Positions 1-20,490 of a stretch of 64,000 nucleotides of DNA are shown here, one piece after another. Numbering within the stretch: position 1 is the stretch's first letter; each line of letters opens with the position of its first letter. The notes under the pieces were generated by a model that had not been told where the DNA came from, did no database searches, and worked only from the letters and a program-made list of their open reading frames with translations. The position numbers were made by a program, and so were the translations under genes. The stretch covers positions 1 to 64,000 of the IMG/VR virus record IMGVR_UViG_3300027751_000004; one strand, 5' to 3'. Source of the stretch: a virus. Its lineage: Duplodnaviria; Caudoviricetes.

Positions 1-58
1 AGTTTCGTCAGCGAACTTAACTTTCATAATATATTCTCTCATCTCAATTTATACAAGT

Positions 59-87
59 ATTATACTACATTCAAACAGTAAAGTAAA
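59..87 (-). promoter_or_regulatory. early sigma70-type promoter
   Basis: TTTACT-17bp-TATAAT on the minus strand; drives a gene starting at 27 that runs off the window. Confidence 0.8.
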
Positions 88-104
88 GCATTTTTTAAAA
101 AATA

Positions 105-122
105 AGGGGGATTAACCCCCCT
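105..122. terminator. intrinsic terminator hairpin
   Basis: AGGGGG-ATTAA-CCCCC stem; T-rich run follows on the minus strand after ORF 128..295. Confidence 0.7.
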
Positions 123-127
123 AATCG

Positions 128-295
128 CTATAGATTTTTAGACCAGCTTTTTAGTAGGGTATCAACATTAGTACCCCAAAAGGTTTCAAGGACTTCGCGA
201 TTAGCCTCAAGCCAAGCGATTTTATTTTCGACAGTTTCAATAGCTTTAAACTCATCAACTAATACTACATACTCAAGATTTTCAAGTTTAGACAT
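128..295 (-). CDS. small early hypothetical protein
   Basis: ORF with GAGAG-type RBS directly behind an early promoter. Confidence 0.7.
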   Translation of the reverse strand: MSKLENLEYVVLVDEFKAIETVENKIAWLEANREVLETFWGTNVDTLLKSWSKNL

Positions 296-324
296 AATAT
301 ATTCTCTCATCAATTTATACACGT

Positions 325-353
325 ATTATACTACATGTATCTACAAAAGTAAA
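325..353 (-). promoter_or_regulatory. early sigma70-type promoter
   Basis: TTTACT-17bp-TATAAT. Confidence 0.8.
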
Positions 354-377
354 GGTTTTTTTTGATTATTTTTAGAA

Positions 378-385
378 TATAAATA
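378..385 (+). promoter_or_regulatory. T4-type late promoter
   Basis: TATAAATA upstream of the lipoprotein gene. Confidence 0.65.
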
Positions 386-466
386 ATATTGTCCAACGCC
401 ATAAAGTTAGCAATTACCACATGACGTTGAACAACATAAATGCTAATATAATAAGGAGCTAAAAAA

Positions 467-667
467 ATGAAGATGATCTATGCAATCTTCGCAGTAGTCC
501 TATTAGCAGGATGCAACACAATCGACTCAACATACAACAGCGCACAGAACATCGTGCAAGGGGTTAAAGACGACGTTGTAGGCATTACTGCTGGTACTCT
601 TGATAGCGTTAGTGGCGTTATCAGAGACACTGCCGAGAAGACAGACCCACCCAGTAAGAGTGAGTAG
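467..667 (+). CDS. small lipoprotein (entericidin-like architecture)
   Basis: Signal peptide with lipobox LAGC, amphipathic body, AAGGAG RBS. Confidence 0.7.
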   Translation: MKMIYAIFAVVLLAGCNTIDSTYNSAQNIVQGVKDDVVGITAGTLDSVSGVIRDTAEKTDPPSKSE

Positions 668-690
668 TATTATTTATACGAGAAACTAAG

Positions 691-698
691 TATAAATA
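691..698 (+). promoter_or_regulatory. T4-type late promoter
   Basis: Intergenic TATAAATA; a divergent copy lies at 671..678 on the minus strand. Confidence 0.5.
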
Positions 699-764
699 CC
701 TAGTTTACAATTAAGTAGCTACTTTGCCATGGACGGCATTTATTATTTTTAGGATTAAAAACCT

Positions 765-772
765 TATAAATA
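765..772 (+). promoter_or_regulatory. T4-type late promoter of the 832..5272 operon
   Basis: TATAAATA about 60 bp upstream of ATG 832. Confidence 0.65.
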
Positions 773-831
773 GATATTGTAACATATGATTACATTAATA
801 AATAAACTGAAATATTTTGGGATAAAGAATT

Positions 832-1425
832 ATGAAACTCGGAATGACTTTGATTGCTGGAATACTAGCGATGACTTCGACACTGGCGTTAGCGGAAACT
901 ACAGAGACACAGGAAACTACTGAAAACGTTCCTATCGTAGACCCTAATAAAATCGTTACCGATTCAACAACGACAAGCACAGTAACTACTCAAGCAGATG
1001 CGACAACAACAGTAAAGTCGCCACCCCCATCCGCTATTAGTCCACAAATTAATACGTCTAACTCCGATCTATGTACGACTGGGGTTTCAGGAGCAATTCA
1101 AACCCAGATATTAGGTATATCTGCTGGTAGAACTGTTCGGGATATGAATTGCGAAAGGTTAAAACTTTCCAAGACATTATTCGATATGGGTATGAAAGTA
1201 GCAGCAGTATCTGCATTGTGTCAGGACAAAAGAGTCTTTGATGCTATGATGAACGCTGGTACACCTTGTCCATATGATGGCGTTATCGGTAAAGAAGCAA
1301 AAGATCTTTGGGAATTAAATGGCGGTCAGCCAGTAGAAGAAGAAGATAAGGGTATGAGTAATGAGAGCAAAACATTGCTTGGTGGGGCTGGCGTTGCTAG
1401 TCTCCTCATTTTATTGCTACTCTGA
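832..1425 (+). CDS. exported protein: Thr-rich linker, 4-Cys domain, C-terminal membrane anchor
   Basis: Sec signal (ALA|E), C-terminal GGAGVASLLILLLL. Confidence 0.7.
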   Translation: MKLGMTLIAGILAMTSTLALAETTETQETTENVPIVDPNKIVTDSTTTSTVTTQADATTTVKSPPPSAISPQINTSNSDLCTTGVSGAIQTQILGISAGRTVRDMNCERLKLSKTLFDMGMKVAAVSALCQDKRVFDAMMNAGTPCPYDGVIGKEAKDLWELNGGQPVEEEDKGMSNESKTLLGGAGVASLLILLLL

Positions 1426-2272
1426 TGTAGTCGCTGGGACAACCCAGAATGCTGCAGCCACCTCAATGAATTGGGTGATGCAGAATGTTTTACCGCAACA
1501 GGCAGGGTTAACAGTAAATGCCTTGATATATCGTTACACGGTTGAAAAAGAGACCGAAGACGATATGGTAGTAGACATAAGAAACAAGAATGCAAAGGGA
1601 GACGAGTTTGGTTATATCTTCTCTCAGAGGGATAATTGGTCAGGAGTTCCTGGAAACAGCTTGACGCAAGTAGCACCTATAAACGATATTCCTATTGAGT
1701 ATTGGGGTGATGGCGAAATAGCAGTAGAAGGGAAGGGTAAAGTTGTTGACCCATTTATTTCATATTCATATAAATACGATACATGCTATGATCCTATGAG
1801 TGATCCTAGCTGTCCTGGATATGATAATGCTATGAGTGATTTCCTTAAACAGTTTTTGGAGGATGTTCAGAACGTAGAAGGATACTACGACCCAACCACG
1901 GATGAGTGGGTACAGCTTCAAATGGAAACCGATTCTGAGGTCGATGAAGAGACCGATGAAGAGAGGGAAGAAAGAGAGAAAATGGAAGAGGAAGGACAGG
2001 GAGTCGAAAAAGACGAGAGGTTAGTTGCGTTACAAGCAAATAACAATTTACTAGCCGAAGTCGCAAAAGTGTCGCAGGATTCATTATTAAATATTATTAA
2101 TAGTGTTCCTAGCTTCAGCGTTTATTATCAAGCGCAAATGACTGGAGGTGCGTATGCAGATGTACAAGGTTATTCTTCTGAGCGTATTCCAGATAATAAA
2201 AAGGGGTTGAGAGTAGGACTGGCTCAACAATTGTTACACACTGAGATGGTCAATTCTCAATTCAATAAATAG
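1361..2272 (+). CDS. exported acidic protein
   Basis: Hydrophobic N-terminus, beta-rich N domain, CYDPMSDPSCPGY motif, Glu-rich linker. Confidence 0.65.
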   Translation: MRAKHCLVGLALLVSSFYCYSDVVAGTTQNAAATSMNWVMQNVLPQQAGLTVNALIYRYTVEKETEDDMVVDIRNKNAKGDEFGYIFSQRDNWSGVPGNSLTQVAPINDIPIEYWGDGEIAVEGKGKVVDPFISYSYKYDTCYDPMSDPSCPGYDNAMSDFLKQFLEDVQNVEGYYDPTTDEWVQLQMETDSEVDEETDEEREEREKMEEEGQGVEKDERLVALQANNNLLAEVAKVSQDSLLNIINSVPSFSVYYQAQMTGGAYADVQGYSSERIPDNKKGLRVGLAQQLLHTEMVNSQFNK

Positions 2273-2283
2273 GAGAACGCTAG

Positions 2284-2781
2284 ATGTTCAAAAAATCATT
2301 AACCGCTGCAGCAATTTTATTCGCAGCAAGTGCTCAAGCTGCAGATGTTCCGATTACTGGTAACGTTGCTTCTAAATGTACAATCTACACAGACACGCAA
2401 GGGGTTTATGGTAACCCATTGCCAAATACACTAAGTACTCTACCAGCAGATGGCGGTGTTAAGCCAGTTATCCGTTATGACGTAGTAAATGGTGGCATGT
2501 ATAAAGCCGTTATTGCTACTCCAGATGAATTCACTGCTAGCCCAAATATCGATGATGTGCTAGACTGGGAAGGATCTATTGCTGTTGCTGAAGTATCAGA
2601 TGCTCAAATGTCTGACTACGAAAACAACAAGGTATTGTATGATAACGTAACTGAGATCGAACTGACTGTTGCTGGTTCTACTTGGTTTGACGTTACTTCG
2701 TCTGTAGACTATGGCGTAGGTAAAGCACTTCCAGGTGGTACTTACCGTGCACTAGTTTCTGCTGAGTGTATTGCTCTGTAG
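2284..2781 (+). CDS. exported fimbrial-subunit/Csu-like beta-sandwich protein
   Basis: Signal AQA|A, then VPITGNVASKCTI (pilin-like N-terminus); C-terminal PGGTYRALV strand; AGGAG RBS. Confidence 0.55.
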   Translation: MFKKSLTAAAILFAASAQAADVPITGNVASKCTIYTDTQGVYGNPLPNTLSTLPADGGVKPVIRYDVVNGGMYKAVIATPDEFTASPNIDDVLDWEGSIAVAEVSDAQMSDYENNKVLYDNVTEIELTVAGSTWFDVTSSVDYGVGKALPGGTYRALVSAECIAL

Positions 2782-2782
2782 T

Positions 2783-3163
2783 ATGAAGCACTTTTTGTTA
2801 TTTGTGTTTTGTGTGTTAGTGTCTGCTGGTGTTAAATCGCATCAGTGGACACCGACCTACCCTGACCTTGAGAGATCTCATATAAAAAACGTCAGGATGG
2901 TCAATATGGAACTTTGGAATAAGAGGGAAGAAGTCCAATTCTACGAACTTAAAGTGTTCGATTCAGAATGGAGACCAGTACCCTTTGCTACAACAAACCG
3001 TGTAGTAGAAGTACCATATCTAAAAAGAAAAAAGATTCAGATATACATTAGGGAAATAGATGCTAGCAGAGTAACTTATATCTGCTCTAGGTCTAAAATT
3101 GTTAAGGAAGACGTTGACGCAACTCCAATATCATCAAGGATTTGCTCTAAAATAAAAACTTAA
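2783..3163 (+). CDS. exported PapD-like (pilus chaperone-like) Ig-domain protein
   Basis: Signal peptide, WTP..., MELWNK, beta-strand pattern, two C-terminal Cys. Confidence 0.45.
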   Translation: MKHFLLFVFCVLVSAGVKSHQWTPTYPDLERSHIKNVRMVNMELWNKREEVQFYELKVFDSEWRPVPFATTNRVVEVPYLKRKKIQIYIREIDASRVTYICSRSKIVKEDVDATPISSRICSKIKT

Positions 3164-3175
3164 TTGGAATTATGA

Positions 3176-3613
3176 ATGAAACGTTTTGCTATTGTTATTT
3201 TATTGTTTGCAGTCAATGCTAATTCTACTGAGAATATGTCGCTATCAATGCCGTCAGCTTCTCAGAACTTTCAGTCAGATAGAGTACGTGCTGATGGGTT
3301 TGAGTGTCAAAATGCTATCGGCTCTGGCACAAATTTAGAATTTGGTGTTGTGGGTATTTTAGATAGAGGCGAAGACCCATATAATTTTTATGGCGACGAT
3401 ATCAATACTCAGATGGCTTCTGGTAATAGGATTATGGACGGTAAAGCAAAAGACGTAGGTGTCTATGCTCGAATAATCGTTCCTATCGGTGGACCCAAAG
3501 AAAGAGTTAATTGTAATACCCTATACCAATTAGAGTTGAGAAAAAGAAGGTTACAAGTACAAAAATTAGAACAAGAACTTAACCAATTACGAAATATGGA
3601 ATTTGAAAATTAA
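3176..3613 (+). CDS. exported protein with amphipathic beta-hairpin and C-terminal coiled coil
   Basis: Signal ANS; strands TNLEFGVVG and VGVYARIIVPIG; heptad tail. Confidence 0.55.
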   Translation: MKRFAIVILLFAVNANSTENMSLSMPSASQNFQSDRVRADGFECQNAIGSGTNLEFGVVGILDRGEDPYNFYGDDINTQMASGNRIMDGKAKDVGVYARIIVPIGGPKERVNCNTLYQLELRKRRLQVQKLEQELNQLRNMEFEN

Positions 3614-3625
3614 AGGGTAATCACC

Positions 3626-4348
3626 ATGATAGAATATTGCCATAAAATGGCTAAGTGTGCATCGTATGCATACTTTGATAAAAAAGAAGGTAAAAAGTTT
3701 TTTACATTACTGGGTTATACCAAACATAAATTTATAGATGTTGATGGTGCTCAGTGTCATGTAGCTTGGAACGACGGAGAGATGGTACTAGCATTCCGTG
3801 GTACAGAACCTGATGAGTTTTCTGACATTAAAGCAGATCTAAATGCTTTCCCTGATCAAGCATGGAATGGCCATGGCTTGGTTCATAATGGATTCCAAGA
3901 AGAATTAAATAAGATCTGGGACAAGGTTCTAGATGCTCTTAAAATACAAGGCGATAGAGAGTTACACATTACTGGGCATAGCCTTGGTGGTGCTATGGCT
4001 ACACTAGCGACCTCTCGTCTTAGAGAAAAGACTCGTTGCCTATACACTTATGGATCTCCAAGAGTAGGTACTCGTCGTTTTGTTAAATCAATCAATGTTC
4101 CGCATTATCGTCATGTAAATAATAACGATATCGTAACTAAAGTACCGTTTGCTATTATGGGTTACAAGCATCATGGTCACTTACGTTATATTAATCACTA
4201 TGGCGAGATACGTCATATGACTGTATGGCAAAGAGTTAAAGATCAATTTAGAGGTAGGTTTGCAGCATGGCGTAACTGTAAACCATTCGATGGGGCATTT
4301 GACCACAGCTGTGAATACTACGTCAAATACACAAGGTGTAACTGCTAA
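3626..4348 (+). CDS. class 3 lipase
   Basis: AFRGT, VHNGF, GHSLGGA nucleophile motif, TYGSPRVG, DIVTKVP. Confidence 0.9.
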   Translation: MIEYCHKMAKCASYAYFDKKEGKKFFTLLGYTKHKFIDVDGAQCHVAWNDGEMVLAFRGTEPDEFSDIKADLNAFPDQAWNGHGLVHNGFQEELNKIWDKVLDALKIQGDRELHITGHSLGGAMATLATSRLREKTRCLYTYGSPRVGTRRFVKSINVPHYRHVNNNDIVTKVPFAIMGYKHHGHLRYINHYGEIRHMTVWQRVKDQFRGRFAAWRNCKPFDGAFDHSCEYYVKYTRCNC

Positions 4349-4623
4349 TGGAATTACTAGATAAATTAACAAGCGACACATTATGGATTTATACAGCCAT
4401 ACTAGGTTCTTTATTCGGTGCTGCATTTCTAGCATATTTTAAAGATACTCGTGCTGGTCTATGGTGTTATGCTAAACTGGATCAATTTTTAGATTATCTG
4501 GTAGATAAATATGAACTTTCTTGGTTTGAACAACCAACAGATGCATGGCGTAAAAAATACCCATATGTTACTAAAAAGATTGATGAGTTAGAAAATAGAA
4601 TTAAACAATTGGAGAGAAAATAA
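4348..4623 (+). CDS. small membrane protein (possible holin)
   Basis: One N-terminal TM helix, charged coiled-coil C-terminus. Confidence 0.5.
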   Translation: MELLDKLTSDTLWIYTAILGSLFGAAFLAYFKDTRAGLWCYAKLDQFLDYLVDKYELSWFEQPTDAWRKKYPYVTKKIDELENRIKQLERK

Positions 4624-4760
4624 TGGCAAAGGCAAAGGGATCTACATCTGCTCTTGTTCCTACAATTAAAGGTACAAGTCTCGGCAGACGACCAAACACT
4701 TCTTCTATGAACAAATCAAAGAAGCGTTCATTTAAGAAATATAGAGGGCAGGGCAAGTAA
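4623..4760 (+). CDS. 45-aa basic protein (not in ORF track)
   Basis: MAKAKGSTSALVP...KKRSFKKYRGQGK; TAATG coupling at both ends. Confidence 0.65.
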   Translation: MAKAKGSTSALVPTIKGTSLGRRPNTSSMNKSKKRSFKKYRGQGK

Positions 4761-5272
4761 TGGCTGAGTTTGAATTTGGCGGTATGACGTTTAAGGGTGG
4801 TAAGATATTTGTTCTTATGACTGCTCTTTCTACTCTTGGGGGTGCTTCTTGGGCTGGCTTCGAGTTCTATAAAGATTACATGGACATGAAAGAGATTGTC
4901 CAGAATATCGACGTAGATGCTATTCGTCAGGAGAGAGAATTGCTACAGCAAGAGTTAAAGGGTGCGTTGAGTAAAGTTGACGATGCTATTGAGTACACAC
5001 GTGACATTAAGACTGGCTTAAGAGACGATATCTTAGGTATCGAGAAACAAGCAGATCGTGTAGAGGATATGGTAAGGGAAACAGAAGACGAAGTACGCTC
5101 TACAATTCAGAACGCAGAAGAACGCTTCGACCAAAAGCGTGATGCCCTGCAATCTGATTATGATCGCAAGGCATCAGCACTCCGTGACAACACGGAACAA
5201 AAACTTAAAGACTTAGAAGAAAGGTTATCCAGTAGATTACAACTAGCACTGGACAACCCATTATCTAATTAA
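4760..5272 (+). CDS. membrane-anchored coiled-coil protein
   Basis: N-terminal TM segment, long heptad region, ends LDNPLSN. Confidence 0.7.
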   Translation: MAEFEFGGMTFKGGKIFVLMTALSTLGGASWAGFEFYKDYMDMKEIVQNIDVDAIRQERELLQQELKGALSKVDDAIEYTRDIKTGLRDDILGIEKQADRVEDMVRETEDEVRSTIQNAEERFDQKRDALQSDYDRKASALRDNTEQKLKDLEERLSSRLQLALDNPLSN

Positions 5273-5550
5273 GATCCGTAGTAAGCATCTGTTTTAAAGG
5301 ATACGAACTTATCCTTACGGAAAGATCTCCATCCATTTGCTTCAAGGTCGAATACTGTTACAACGTTCTCGTTTACTGCTCGAGCCTCTGCACGGTTAAG
5401 ACCTTCATTAAGCGTAGGGGTAAATGCTTCGGGGATTAGATCACCATTGCGTGTACCATATAACTCACGGATCGATCCATCAGCCTTTTCAAACTTGATA
5501 CGTGCTGTACCATCATTCAACGCTTCTACTGCATTATTTAAAACTTCCAT
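5269..5550 (-). CDS. WYL/SH3-like small protein
   Basis: FEKADGSIR...GTRN...FDLEANGWRSFR pattern. Confidence 0.6.
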   Translation of the reverse strand: MEVLNNAVEALNDGTARIKFEKADGSIRELYGTRNGDLIPEAFTPTLNEGLNRAEARAVNENVVTVFDLEANGWRSFRKDKFVSFKTDAYYGS

Positions 5551-5574
5551 AATATTACTCCACTTTATTTAAAT

Positions 5575-6000
5575 TTAAATTTCTTCAATTGTTATCTCAC
5601 CATAGAAAGAAGTTTCAGATTCTTCTACGTGATAACCACTATCGTCAAGGTATGATTCACCTTGCTCATCAACGCCATCCCAGACTTCGTCGATAGTTCC
5701 ATCTAATTCTTCCTCTTCAGAGAAACCTCTTACATCATCTACTTCGGTAGAACCATCAAACGATGCTTGAAACTCTGAATATTCGAAATCATATGGGTCA
5801 AAAGATCCATCATCTTCTTGATTAGATGCGACCTCTAACTTTAAAACCTCATCTTGGTTCTGAGGAGTGATATTAACAGAACCACTCTTCCATACTGTGG
5901 TCAATTCTACCCTTTTGTCTCCATTAACCCAAGTTTCTTTTTCTTGGTAATTATATTTACTAGGAGAAACCGCATATCTTTTACCTATTTCAAAACTCAT
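5575..6000 (-). CDS. acidic hypothetical protein (paralog family with 11541 and 14548)
   Basis: Shared motifs, see findings. Confidence 0.65.
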   Translation of the reverse strand: MSFEIGKRYAVSPSKYNYQEKETWVNGDKRVELTTVWKSGSVNITPQNQDEVLKLEVASNQEDDGSFDPYDFEYSEFQASFDGSTEVDDVRGFSEEEELDGTIDEVWDGVDEQGESYLDDSGYHVEESETSFYGEITIEEI

Positions 6001-6003
6001 AAT

Positions 6004-6582
6004 TTATCCTGTAATTGTTTGGTAAATTTCTTTCCAGTTAGCAAGTCTCAGCGCATCACCATCATACGAGGAGTTATGGGCATGAGCCACTAGTATAGAG
6101 TCGAGACCCATTTCAATACCAAGATCAGCATTTGCTGGTTTATCTTCAACCCAGTAGCAGTCAGTGTCTTTATAATCAAGCAGAGCATCATCTTTATCAG
6201 CACCAGTATCAAGGTAAACAAACTTATCAAAGACACTATCACCGAACATTTCACGCAGGTTTTTAGTTCTTAGATGTTGCGCATACTCATCAGTGCTTAG
6301 ACTACTAATACAATGGAAGACATAACCATGATCAGAGTGTAGCTTCTTGATATACTTAATAGCATCTCGTAGTGGAGGGAGTTTACGAATCTGGGCACTT
6401 TCATTAAACATACGAACCAGACGTCTCTTTTCTGGCTTAGAAAGACCATACTTCAGATCAACTTTATACTCGTTTTTAGAGACAACATCATAACCATGCT
6501 TTGCCATCCAGTTCTCGAATGCGAACTCCCAATCAAGCATAACACCATCACAATCAACTAAAATTATTTTATCACGTCTCAA
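6004..6582 (-). CDS. HAD-family 5'(3')-deoxyribonucleotidase
   Basis: DCDGV motif I, WVEDK motif. Confidence 0.8.
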   Translation of the reverse strand: MRRDKIILVDCDGVMLDWEFAFENWMAKHGYDVVSKNEYKVDLKYGLSKPEKRRLVRMFNESAQIRKLPPLRDAIKYIKKLHSDHGYVFHCISSLSTDEYAQHLRTKNLREMFGDSVFDKFVYLDTGADKDDALLDYKDTDCYWVEDKPANADLGIEMGLDSILVAHAHNSSYDGDALRLANWKEIYQTITG

Positions 6583-7182: not shown

Positions 7183-7385
7183 TATGCAGCCTCAGATAAC
7201 TTAGCATGTTCACCATCAGACCTAACCTCGGCAACATAACGCTCTACAGGAGCAGGAACAATATACCCATCAGAAAGAGCCATCTTGTTTTCGGCATAGT
7301 CAACACTCACAGCAATAATCTCTTTCACTTGTAACCATTTGTCTTCATTGACAAGACGAACATAATCACCTTCAAATATAATCAT
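7182..7385 (-). CDS. early hypothetical protein
   Basis: Coupled ORF. Confidence 0.6.
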   Translation of the reverse strand: MIIFEGDYVRLVNEDKWLQVKEIIAVSVDYAENKMALSDGYIVPAPVERYVAEVRSDGEHAKLSEAA

Positions 7386-7582
7386 TATACAGCCTCCAAA
7401 AAACGTGAATCAGTACCATAGTCCATAGCCTGCACGGGGCGATGGTTAACCAGTTCCCAGAAATGTTTGTCTAGGACAGAGAACGATAACAAAGGGGCAA
7501 CCCACTCAGTACCGTCTTCAAACGAAACATAAGTAGGCTCACTTTTCAACGCACTTTCAAGGATATCTAAGCTCATAATCAT
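7385..7582 (-). CDS. early hypothetical protein
   Basis: GAGAG RBS behind an early promoter. Confidence 0.6.
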   Translation of the reverse strand: MIMSLDILESALKSEPTYVSFEDGTEWVAPLLSFSVLDKHFWELVNHRPVQAMDYGTDSRFLEAV

Positions 7583-7607
7583 CTCTCTTTATCAATTCAA
7601 TACAAGT

Positions 7608-7636
7608 ATTATACTTTATTTCAAAGCCAAAGTAAA
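7608..7636 (-). promoter_or_regulatory. early sigma70-type promoter
   Basis: TTTACT-17bp-TATAAT. Confidence 0.8.
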
Positions 7637-7643
7637 GGGTTTT

Positions 7644-7997
7644 TTAAAATAAATAGTTCGGACCAGTCCACTGAATAGAGTAATCTTCAAAGATATTACC
7701 ACGGGCATGGTTACGAGCAGGAGCATTATAACCTGCAGCCATTAAGATATCGCCTTTCTTAAACTTTTTATCATCTTCAAGAACGACAAAACCCCAGACA
7801 CGAGAACCAACATTACCATTATCACGAACTTCGTCGTTGGTAATCTTAAGATACTTGCGTCCAGGTTTTAGGGTTAGTTCGTCACGGAACTTTTCTACTC
7901 TAGTCTCATCATGATACTCAGTTCTCTGAGACCATCTGTCGTAGTCGTTACCGATTCTTTCTAGGAGGGTTGTTACAGCAGTATCAAAATTATTCAT
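7644..7997 (-). CDS. early hypothetical protein of a type common in T4-like phages
   Basis: GRKYLKI...KKGDILMAA...APARNHARGNI. Confidence 0.7.
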   Translation of the reverse strand: MNNFDTAVTTLLERIGNDYDRWSQRTEYHDETRVEKFRDELTLKPGRKYLKITNDEVRDNGNVGSRVWGFVVLEDDKKFKKGDILMAAGYNAPARNHARGNIFEDYSIQWTGPNYLF

Positions 7998-8028
7998 AAA
8001 ATAGTCTCTCATCTCAATTTATACAGGT

Positions 8029-8057
8029 ATTATACCACCTATTGAGATGAAAGGCAA
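8029..8057 (-). promoter_or_regulatory. early sigma70-type promoter
   Basis: TTGCCT-17bp-TATAAT. Confidence 0.75.
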
Positions 8058-8118
8058 GGTTTTTTATAACTTTTTTTATAATATTTTGTTATATGCTTAG
8101 AACTTTTCAGTATATGGC

Positions 8119-8373
8119 TTAATAAACCGCCATAATACTTTCTGCTGGTAGGAGACCAGCTTTCTCGCCTTCATGACGAACCTTCACTACGCCAGCCCAG
8201 CTAGTTACTACTTTATCTCCAGCTTCGATGCCTTCAACTTCTGGACCGACTGCCAGAACAATTGCTGGTTTAGCTACATCTGGTGCGGCACCAGACATAA
8301 TAATACCTCCAGCCGATACCGCATCTTCACCTTTTACTTCAACAACAAGTACAAAATCTTTTAATGGTTTCAT
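8119..8373 (-). CDS. groES: GroES/Cpn10-like co-chaperonin
   Basis: MKPLKDFVLV, SAGGII mobile loop, VLAVGP, GDKV. Confidence 0.8.
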   Translation of the reverse strand: MKPLKDFVLVVEVKGEDAVSAGGIIMSGAAPDVAKPAIVLAVGPEVEGIEAGDKVVTSWAGVVKVRHEGEKAGLLPAESIMAVY

Positions 8374-19664: not shown

Positions 19665-20042
19665 CTATTTTTCTTCTTGTGGTTCGTAATATTCTTTGTA
19701 CTTGATTATTATCGTGCGCTGTTTATCTATATAGTTTCGGAGTTCTAAAAGGTTGACTGCCAGCTTTTCGTACCCATCATCTGAGACCCCAAATAAAACG
19801 AGGTCGACTTTATCTTTAGATAATTTTTCCCAGACAGAATCTACATTGTCTTGGGTTACGACATAAAACTTGACTGGCATTGGCTCAAGCGTGGAAGGGA
19901 ATTGTAAGTTGAGTGGCGGTTTATCTTCCGCTCGTGTAACAACTTCAAGAGGATCTACTTTCTTACCACCCAGATTAAGGATGGAACACCCATTAAGGAG
20001 TAACAGGGGTATAATTAGGATTAGCGATTGACGGACATTCAT
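19665..20042 (-). CDS. outer-membrane lipoprotein, o-spanin (Rz1-like)
   Basis: Lipobox LNGC, Pro-rich segment, overlaps the i-spanin 3' end. Confidence 0.7.
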   Translation of the reverse strand: MNVRQSLILIIPLLLLNGCSILNLGGKKVDPLEVVTRAEDKPPLNLQFPSTLEPMPVKFYVVTQDNVDSVWEKLSKDKVDLVLFGVSDDGYEKLAVNLLELRNYIDKQRTIIIKYKEYYEPQEEK

Positions 20043-20490
20043 TATTTGACTCACTTTTCAATTTAGCGTTAATCTCTTTTTCTGTTAAAGGAGATCCGCT
20101 TACTATTTCAAAACAACGGTTCACATTGTTGCTTGCTCTATTAATAATTCGTTCTATCGGTCTAGGTTTAGCAATAGCCAAAACACCAAAGTCTCTTGGG
20201 TTGCCATTCTTAGATTGATTAAACTTAGTCTTCAATTCTTTCATTTGCTTATCGAGTTTTGCGTTATTCTCTACGATATCTTGATTGATAGACTGTATTT
20301 GTTCAAAGTCTTGTTTTAGAGTTTCGATATATTGAGATTGTACTTCGGCAGCATCCTTCAACTTCTGCTCATTTGCCTGAGAGATAGCCAAGTTAGCTTT
20401 TAGATTAGTTACATACCAAAGTCCAAACCCTATAACCAAAACAATAACAAGCGATGTTACAGCTTTTATTGTACCACTTGCACCAAACAT
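19993..20490 (-). CDS. i-spanin (Rz-like)
   Basis: N-terminal TM, long coiled coil, C-terminal Cys. Confidence 0.7.
   Translation of the reverse strand: MFGASGTIKAVTSLVIVLVIGFGLWYVTNLKANLAISQANEQKLKDAAEVQSQYIETLKQDFEQIQSINQDIVENNAKLDKQMKELKTKFNQSKNGNPRDFGVLAIAKPRPIERIINRASNNVNRCFEIVSGSPLTEKEINAKLKSESNNECPSIANPNYTPVTP

Follow-up and report, generated by a model that had tools for sequence, protein, structure and literature searches.

We describe a block of genes for exported proteins in IMG/VR virus record IMGVR_UViG_3300027751_000004, of which we analysed the first 64 kb (64,000 nucleotides; hereafter the window). The full contig has 120 kb, its completeness is estimated at 66%, and by sequence its source is a divergent T4-like phage, with a DNA polymerase 52% identical to that of Phage C48C1 and ~49% identical to those of cyanomyophages. 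The reading that we favour, at roughly even odds (a probability of about 0.5), is that the adjacent genes P1 to P5 and the downstream gene P9 belong to an envelope block, headed by a late-promoter-like motif, that acts on the host envelope at the end of infection. This block would join a first module (A), consisting of a membrane-anchored 4-Cys protein (P1), a secreted variable-head protein (P2) and a transmembrane coiled-coil protein (P9), to a second (B), a chaperone-subunit trio without an usher (P3, P4 and P5). The evidence for this reading includes the predicted fold of P4, that of the first domain of a PapD-type chaperone, and the predicted complex of P4 with P3, an exported immunoglobulin-like (Ig-like) protein.

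Predicted folds of P4 and P3

The AlphaFold2 (AF2) model of P4, built on a 41-sequence alignment, has a predicted local distance difference test score (pLDDT) of 93, and the proteins leading its Foldseek matches are almost all chaperones of chaperone-usher systems (DraB, PapD, FaeE, Caf1M, SafB, FimC and CsuC; E-values from 8e-5 to ~1e-3). Residues 19-126 superpose on residues 1-115 of these chaperones, with VIA-align Z-scores of 10.6-10.9 (10.9 for Caf1M, 10.8 for FimC and 10.7 for SafB) and root-mean-square deviations of 2.5-2.9 Å over 98-104 residues; a search independent of Foldseek, covering 48,161 representative chains, is led by the same chaperone families. On the strength of these models, P4 is a protein of the PapD-like fold seen in chaperone domain 1, by a small margin over other members of the superfamily, and at the level of fold this bears out the first-pass annotation of our stretch, which had seen in P4 a single PapD-type Ig domain.

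The second, C-terminal Ig domain of such chaperones is absent. P4 has 126 residues, and the 120 relatives listed from its family, which comprises 2549 clusters at 90% identity, all have 114-129 residues and no Pfam domain; the search covered lengths of 63-228 residues, with longer fused forms lying outside it. A fold search of BFVD with P4 returned uncharacterised viral proteins only. The mature protein begins HQWTPTYP, residues N46, R48, C101 and C121 are invariant, and the last strand reads S118-[RK]-I-C-S-K. Residue 1 of mature P4 (residue 20 of the precursor, positions 2840-2842) is a His in 41 of 41 sequences of the T4-like clade; this His is kept in an Erwinia phage homologue (HQFWP) and is replaced by Leu in Vibrio phages.

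The P3 model (51 sequences) has a pLDDT of 92, and its leading Foldseek matches are chaperone-usher pilins, namely CfaB, FimF, CsuA/B, Caf1 and the pilin domain of PapG (E-values of ~1e-3, template modelling scores of 0.4-0.5). The only cysteines of P3, C32 and C162, are invariant, and P150, G152 and Y154 precede a last strand with alternating small residues. The pilin-like start (ITGNVASKCTI) and terminal GxY strand that had been remarked upon in this protein are both present. Upstream of C32 lies a peptide whose residues 21-28 belong neither to the fold nor to the predicted interface with P4, and which is conserved in the 51 sequences as [VI]22, P23, [IV]24, G26 (50 of 51) and [VI]28, followed by S-K-C32. 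In the P3-like proteins of Vibrio phages, at ~22% identity, positions -10, -8 and -4, counted from the Cys, are likewise hydrophobic, and position -6 is occupied by a small residue. This alternation is, as a pattern in the sequence, that of pilin donor strands.

The predicted P3:P4 complex and its possible polymerisation

When mature P3 and P4 were modelled together, the complex scored 0.74, and the best of three controls scored 0.00. In calibration, 58 of 80 solved complexes and 2 of 110 mismatched pairs attained this mark, counts that are rough because our own alignments were used. Contacts agreed between runs to at least 96%, and the pLDDT of the partners was at least 87. The residue pairs of lowest predicted error (P3-P4 pairs 159-117, 160-118, 161-119, 162-120, 163-121 and 164-122) place the last strands of the two proteins parallel to each other, and two further pairs (34-118 and 32-120) place the last strand of P4 antiparallel to the first strand of P3. 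The first strand of P4 (residues 20-26) and the region of its invariant N46 and R48 lie near the C-terminus of P3 in the model.

In donor-strand complementation, the strand supplied by the chaperone runs parallel to the F strand of the subunit (terms as defined in PMC4654587). Because the last strand of P4 is parallel to the last strand of P3, the modelled contact has the predicted geometry of donor-strand complementation. The proposal that P3 has pilin-like ends and is capped by P4 in this manner therefore holds in silico, given the scores of 0.74 and 0.00.

Polymerisation of such a subunit is not unprecedented in the simplest of settings. When the archaic pilin CsuA/B is co-expressed with just its chaperone, in the absence of an usher, it forms sodium dodecyl sulfate-stable polymers, and these require its 12 N-terminal residues (PMC4654587). 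By analogy with CsuA/B, it is plausible that P3 polymerises in the periplasm without an usher.

Export of the five proteins

P3 and P4 would meet in the periplasm, and all five proteins carry putative signal peptides of the Sec type. The N-termini of P1 to P5 hold K/R, a 10-residue hydrophobic core starting at residues 4-6 and a small-x-small site, with predicted cleavage at ALA/E, CYS/D, AQA/A, VKS/H and VNA/N, respectively, and the same pattern was found in 87-100% of homologues (63-83 per family). Throughout the 120-kb contig, a simple heuristic rule (basic residue, hydrophobic core, small-x-small) called 8 of the 135 open reading frames (ORFs) of at least 70 residues exported-looking, and five of these eight are the adjacent P1 to P5. 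The coordinates of five tightly packed ORFs with signal peptides, on the + strand, against mostly - strand genes and behind TATAAATA at 765, were thus confirmed as first annotated, and so were the four Cys and C-terminal hydrophobic anchor reported for P1. The sole further clearly exported-looking ORF of this length in the contig lies among early genes (19665-20054, - strand), encodes 129 residues and has a lipobox-like N-terminus (LLLLNGC).

Conservation of the cassette and its two modules

That these genes co-occur elsewhere was borne out in hundreds of contigs. Profile searches recovered the order P1-P2-P3-P4-P5-P9 in 130 of 185 loci, the remainder being mostly cut by contig ends. P9 is always the last gene of the cassette, following P5 or P2 in 154 of the loci. 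The individual families are large, with more than 540 relatives of P1 in viral contigs, 257 relatives of P5 and, for P3, 106 clusters at 50% identity. At the nucleotide level, a megablast search of positions 400-5300 against phage records gave zero matches, and we found no published description of the cassette in the literature searched.

The five exported proteins had been taken for one system. In 11 loci, however, P1 (with or without P2) is followed by P9 and P3-P5 are lacking; P2 is long there (415-914 residues) and retains the C-terminal H..MV..QY motif. In Pelagibacter podophage HTVC115P, homologues of P1 (gp54, E 3e-43), P8 (gp50; a small basic protein, see below) and P9 (gp49, E 2.6e-20) are encoded along with a P2-like gp53, and in myophage Mosig a P1 homologue (E 7e-35) is followed by P2-like and P9-like genes that we recognised by eye only. 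Because P1, P2 and P9 also occur without P3-P5, for example in SAR11 podophages, the cassette is, judged from gene content, made of two modules, A (P1/P2/P9) and B (the trio P3-P4-P5), and P1 and P2 group with P9 instead of with the trio.

Two further suggestions about module A are unsupported. P1 had been said to share a strand pair with P5 and to form a ring as P5 might, and hhalign aligned the signal peptides only (probability 9%); a role of P2 as a tip adhesin found no supporting evidence. Relationships of P1 to P5 and of P2 to P3 were also rejected by profile comparison. P1 itself matches phrog_20531, its 4-Cys domain (residues ~60-160) is strongly conserved, and its core is found in Pelagibacter, Roseobacter and Ralstonia phages. 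At its C-terminal end (residues ~180-197, positions 1361-1425), P1 and its relatives have GG or GxG and then a Leu-rich stretch that is followed by one residue at most. This end could be a tail anchor or a sorting signal of the GlyGly-CTERM/rhombosortase type; NCBIfam gave no match to the P1 C-terminus. The start of P2 overlaps the 3' end of P1 by 65 nt, and P2 closes on the conserved motif H..MV..Q[YF].

A scan of 185,579 species genomes for the P3 pattern found no bacterial copy. All P1 matches in species genomes are contigs of metagenome-assembled genomes whose taxonomy is mutually inconsistent (41-71% identity; filed under Aquiluna, Melainabacteria, Methanobacteriota, Bacteroides, Polynucleobacter and others), and most likely phage contigs were here assigned to the wrong genomes during binning. 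The P5-like protein of Vibrio phage Brizo did not turn up in 401 sampled genomes of one order, a sample too narrow to show absence.

Profile libraries were of little help in naming these proteins. When all nine proteins were searched against Pfam, NCBIfam and PHROGs, P2-P5 fell into no family that was informative; PDB sequences, searched with profiles of P1-P5, gave no match; and Pfam searches with every aligned member of P3, P4 and P5 and with their Vibrio and Erwinia homologues gave nothing consistent.

The trio in cultured phages

With P5 as query, tblastn matched the records of 182 Vibrio phages and 3 Erwinia phages, and tblastn searches of phage records with P3 and P4 gave no match; the Vibrio homologues were accordingly reached via P5 only and then confirmed by profile comparison. 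In the T5-like Vibrio phage Brizo (MK895508), the trio is encoded by three consecutive ORFs (Table 1). The P5-like ORF of Brizo is not annotated as one gene, and gp139, gp140 and gp141 of the record overlap parts of it. A gene for a 67-residue lipoprotein overlaps its end, and a holin (phrog_860) and an M15 endolysin follow ~550 nt after P5 and ~400 nt after the lipoprotein gene. Upstream of the Brizo trio are two large phrog_10818 proteins without signal peptides. Phages 1.205.O and K120 also have a large protein and then the trio, with a holin-type gene and an M15 endolysin downstream in 1.205.O. In Erwinia phage pEp_SNUABM_01, P4-like and P5-like ORFs match our models and are followed by a P3-like ORF recognised by eye only. 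Taken over three Vibrio phage lineages, the phrog_10818 proteins directly upstream of the trio have 818-967 residues and no signal peptide (41-5132, 195-3098 and 674-3130), and may be fibre or receptor-binding proteins. This context points to a neighbourhood of lysis and tail-fibre genes instead of the classical fimbria that had been envisaged.

Might the genes, then, simply assist lysis? According to this explanation, P0 (a small lipoprotein that opens the block), P1, P2, the trio and P9 would span or weaken the envelope as accessory proteins of lysis or egress, in a spanin-like or outer-membrane-disrupting manner, and P3:P4 would be a structural strut or a regulator, with no fibre being built. 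In Brizo and 1.205.O, the trio is followed downstream by a holin-type gene and that of an M15 endolysin, P1 homologues lie two to three genes upstream of the lysozyme gene in Roseobacter phage CRP-810 and in a freshwater podovirus (MW202481), and in our window a lipase and an XhlA-like membrane protein are encoded within the block. Like i-spanins, P9 combines a transmembrane segment with a coiled coil, and we infer an i-spanin-like topology for it from its sequence. The genes of P1 and P2 overlap, as do those of some spanin pairs, and a lipoprotein gene overlaps the end of P5 in Vibrio phages. We nevertheless regard this explanation as unlikely: there is no spanin match in PHROGs or Pfam, 1.205.O has a spanin-looking pair of its own (a transmembrane protein and a lipoprotein) after the endolysin, and the closeness to lysis genes may reflect a mere hot spot of accessory genes. 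In the window, the lipobox gene P0 ends ~4.1 kb before P9.

P5 and the place of the usher

In agreement with the first-pass annotation, no usher was found in the 120-kb contig, and neither was any large ORF with a signal peptide. None of the ~180 loci has an usher beside the cassette, nor do the Vibrio and Erwinia phages. P5 stands at the usher's place. It contains a hairpin with strands at residues 53-62 and 93-105, a hypervariable, indel-rich tip (residues 63-92), invariant cysteines at the base (C44 and C113) and a C-terminal coiled coil beyond. Of the two amphipathic strands and coiled coil proposed for it, the conservation profile fits the overall description and the second strand is cleanly amphipathic, with V94, V96, A98, I100, I102 and I104 on one face; the first strand is not.

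From these features, we infer that P5 is an oligomeric anchor or platform, and it is possible that its hairpins form a pore in the outer membrane. The latter underlies a surface-fibre explanation, in which a coiled-coil oligomer of P5 inserts its hairpins as a small outer-membrane pore that replaces the usher, and P3 polymers are threaded through it to the cell surface, where they would mask receptors, exclude other phages or aggregate cells. The order subunit-chaperone-P5 parallels that of fimA-fimC-fimD, and one clearly amphipathic strand, a hypervariable loop and two Cys at the hairpin base suit such a pore, as does a weak, sub-threshold match of the Erwinia P5-like protein to OEP/TolC (E 0.0017). 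The position of the trio after large phrog_10818 proteins in three Vibrio phage lineages is also consistent with it, recalling T5, in which receptor-blocking genes sit beside receptor-binding genes. Yet the 40 P5 members matched no outer-membrane family, save for one OMP_b-brl match at E 0.15, one strand of the hairpin lacks clean amphipathicity, mature P5, with ~100 residues, is far from known ushers, and late expression would be odd for the building of a fimbria. A search of the ESM Atlas with P5 gave unnamed viral clusters only and no structure. We consider threading through P5 to the surface improbable, and an assembly in the periplasm around the time of lysis more likely than a classical exported fimbria.

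Genome setting of the block

Nearly all genes of the window are on the - strand, the exception being the + strand block at 467-5272, which comprises P0, P1-P5, a class 3 lipase, the XhlA-like protein, P8 and P9 (Table 1). TATAAATA, which we take to be the core of the T4-type late promoter, stands on the + strand at 378, 691 and 765. It occurs 13 times in the window against 5.9 expected, and 13 occurrences were reached in none of 100 shuffles. The block is probably headed by this late-promoter-like motif. Contigs from RNA libraries of four marine metatranscriptome studies (at least 95% identity) together span 800-3765; one bridges P2, P3 and P4 (1731-3106) and another runs from P5 into the lipase gene (3267-3765). 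Where these contigs differ in length, by 3 nt at 2264-2266 and by 9 nt at 2822-2829, the reading frame is preserved.

The genes between P5 and P9 vary. The lipase gene occurs in 5 of 84 loci, and in its position two related phages encode a 180-residue protein that carries the motif IRNNNPGNIK as well as a signal peptide (7319-7861 and 7607-8152); this protein has no Pfam match and may be a wall-acting enzyme. P8 is very basic, with the C-terminal end KKRSFKKYRGQGK, and directly precedes the P9 homologue both in the phage of the window and in HTVC115P.

Table 1. Features of the envelope block in the window, and ORFs of the trio in Vibrio phage Brizo (MK895508; coordinates of that record)
Feature	Position	Strand	Description
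TATAAATA, late-promoter-like motif	378..385	+	precedes lipoprotein gene P0
P0	467..667	+	66-residue lipoprotein, lipobox LLAGC; Pfam LPAM_1, E 4e-4; opens the envelope block
TATAAATA, late-promoter-like motif	765..772	+	60 nt 5' of P1; further copy at 691-698
P1	832..1425	+	signal peptide, Ser/Thr-rich linker, 4-Cys domain, C-terminal hydrophobic anchor
P2	1361..2272	+	signal peptide, beta-rich N-terminal domain with CxxxxxxxxCPGY, acidic linker
P3	2284..2781	+	exported Ig-like subunit (predicted), donor-strand-like N-terminal peptide; AF2 pLDDT 92
P4	2783..3163	+	exported single-domain PapD-like protein (chaperone domain 1; predicted), 126 residues; AF2 pLDDT 93
P5	3176..3613	+	exported; SLNLxLP strand, beta-hairpin, C-terminal coiled coil; phrog_37374
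Class 3 lipase/esterase	3626..4348	+	Pfam Lipase_3, E 6e-24; without signal peptide; between P5 and P9
Small membrane protein, XhlA-like (lysis-associated)	4348..4623	+	Pfam XhlA, E 2.9e-4 (weak, below cut-off); phrog_1193 hemolysin, E 0.002
P8	4623..4760	+	45-residue basic protein; phmmer E 3.8e-13 to Pelagibacter podophage HTVC115P gp50
P9	4760..5272	+	N-terminal transmembrane segment, long coiled coil, C-terminal DNPL[SA]N
Brizo P3-like	5190-5660		hhalign 96.5%, E 9e-10
Brizo P4-like	5645-6052		hhalign 89.9%, E 2e-6
Brizo P5-like	5968-6345		hhalign 97.9%, E 6e-13

Discussion

Our analysis suggests that P3 and P4 form a subunit-chaperone pair inside an envelope block, and several points weigh against this suggestion. 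The fold of P4 is also near those of MSP/ASH domains (Z 9.3-9.7) and of a glycosidase Ig domain (Z 10.3), with a Z-score of 7.3 at rank 50, and none of the 41 P4 members matched PapD_N (PF00345) at E-values up to 10; the 120-kb contig has no match to PF00345 either. By Z-score, P3 is a generic Ig sandwich, its best value being 8.0, led by MSCRAMM and integrin domains and not by pilins, and P3 members matched none of the Fimbrial or SCPU families of Pfam and NCBIfam. A pilin-specific fold for P3 was considered and is unsupported by these Z-scores. The score of the complex may reflect the memory of solved chaperone-subunit complexes in the predictor, and speaks for likeness and not for binding. 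In the model, moreover, the invariant C32 and C162 of P3 both contact I120 of P4, and a C32-C162 disulfide is hard to fit. No match to the usher family (PF00577, ~800 residues) was found in the 120-kb contig at E-values up to 1, in a contig that is ~66% complete. As for the timing of expression, the promoter motif is the one line of support; the RNA-library contigs are weak evidence and no proof of transcription, as they may derive from DNA in the libraries, cover neighbouring early genes too and do not allow starts, strand or level to be read.

Some of these points would be expected if P3 and P4 were a periplasmic heterodimer that does not polymerise, P3 being a carbohydrate- or protein-binding module of Ig-like or carbohydrate-binding module (CBM)-like type that P4 stabilises by beta-strand augmentation, and the likeness to pili being convergent or at the level of fold only. 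By Z-score, P3 comes closest to MSCRAMM, integrin and CBM domains, the PapD-like/MSP fold occurs widely in proteins other than those of pili, sequence membership in pilus families is lacking, and the genome has one copy of P3 and one of P4 and hence no minor subunits. The N-terminal peptide of P3 is difficult to accommodate in such a heterodimer, as it lies outside both fold and interface and yet is strongly conserved across distant lineages. We give this explanation a slim chance.

How, then, does the pair compare with known systems? In the chaperone-usher pairs FimC-FimA, PapD-PapK, Caf1M-Caf1 and SafB-SafA, as well as the archaic CsuC-CsuA/B and the alternate CfaA-CfaB, both partners are Sec-exported, as P3 and P4 appear to be. 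P4 superposes on chaperone domain 1 of such systems (by the Z-scores given above), the predicted contact is likewise made by the first and last strands of P4 on the first and last strands of P3, with the donor strand parallel, and the N-terminal peptide of P3 has alternating hydrophobic residues, a small residue in its middle and a Cys at the start of the first strand. In addition, strand A of P4 (W-T-P-T-Y-P) resembles W6-P7-I8-Y9-P10 of CsuC (PMC4654587). The differences are no less clear. P4 lacks the whole second domain, which makes the two-domain carboxylate anchor impossible; no usher was found, and a hairpin/coiled-coil protein stands in its place; homology is undetectable in sequence; there is one subunit gene only; the Cys pair of P3 links the first and last strands, and not strands A and B; and the genes are encoded by lytic phages behind a late-promoter motif. 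We conclude that the pair works like a chaperone-subunit pair and yet is not a member of the chaperone-usher family, because no usher, second chaperone domain or sequence membership was found.

PapD-like, MSP and ASH domains outside pili (VAP MSP, the Enterococcus WxL-interacting protein and the ASH domain of CEP192) share with P4 a single-domain s-type Ig fold (Z 9.0-9.7), and several of them bind partner peptides by strand addition. Unlike P4, these proteins are cytosolic or at the Gram-positive surface, and we know of no MSP/ASH protein that is paired with a pilin-like subunit in the Gram-negative periplasm. Among phage accessory genes, T5 Llp, lambda Lom and Bor, and Rz/Rz1 resemble the cassette in having exported or lipoprotein products and overlapping gene pairs, and the trio of Vibrio phages resembles them in position, with putative fibre genes upstream and the genes of a holin-type protein and an endolysin downstream. 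The cassette differs from Llp, Lom/Bor and Rz/Rz1 in that there is no homology and the architecture is another; those systems have no chaperone-subunit pair. To our knowledge, no instance of donor-strand complementation is known outside bacterial chaperone-usher pili, in which a two-domain chaperone and an usher are always present.

In the envelope-block reading that we favour, the single-domain P4 would bind the Ig-like P3 in the periplasm after Sec export, laying its last strand parallel along the last strand of P3. The free N-terminal peptide of P3 might then take the place of P4 at the following P3 molecule or at a different acceptor, so that P3 would grow into a short periplasmic polymer without an usher, and P5, with its hairpin and coiled coil, might serve as the oligomeric anchor or platform of the assembly. 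Perhaps this assembly coats or masks envelope material, or perhaps it helps to break the outer layers late in infection. It is tempting to speculate further that several unrelated lytic phage lineages, namely the marine T4-like phages, the T5-like and other Vibrio phages and one Erwinia phage, carry a minimal, usher-independent fibre pathway, in which one Ig-like subunit, a PapD-like chaperone of half the usual size and the small hairpin/coiled-coil protein would build a polymer within the envelope of the dying host or on its surface, a proposal that we make tentatively and consider rather doubtful.

If this proposal were true, it would add a new branch of donor-strand exchange and a new late function of phages, such as the masking of receptors or the coating of debris that protects progeny. 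A chaperone of one domain, one subunit and no usher would be a stripped-down version of the pathway, occurring in cultured Vibrio phages as well as in environmental phage sequences that number in the thousands, and if both docking and polymerisation are true, it would show the minimal parts needed for the chemistry of donor-strand assembly, as taken up by phages. The Vibrio phages Brizo and Thalassa grow on laboratory strains of Vibrio campbellii/harveyi, which makes the question directly testable, and a positive answer would assign a function to a gene block that is among the commonest of those left unannotated in marine T4-like phages.

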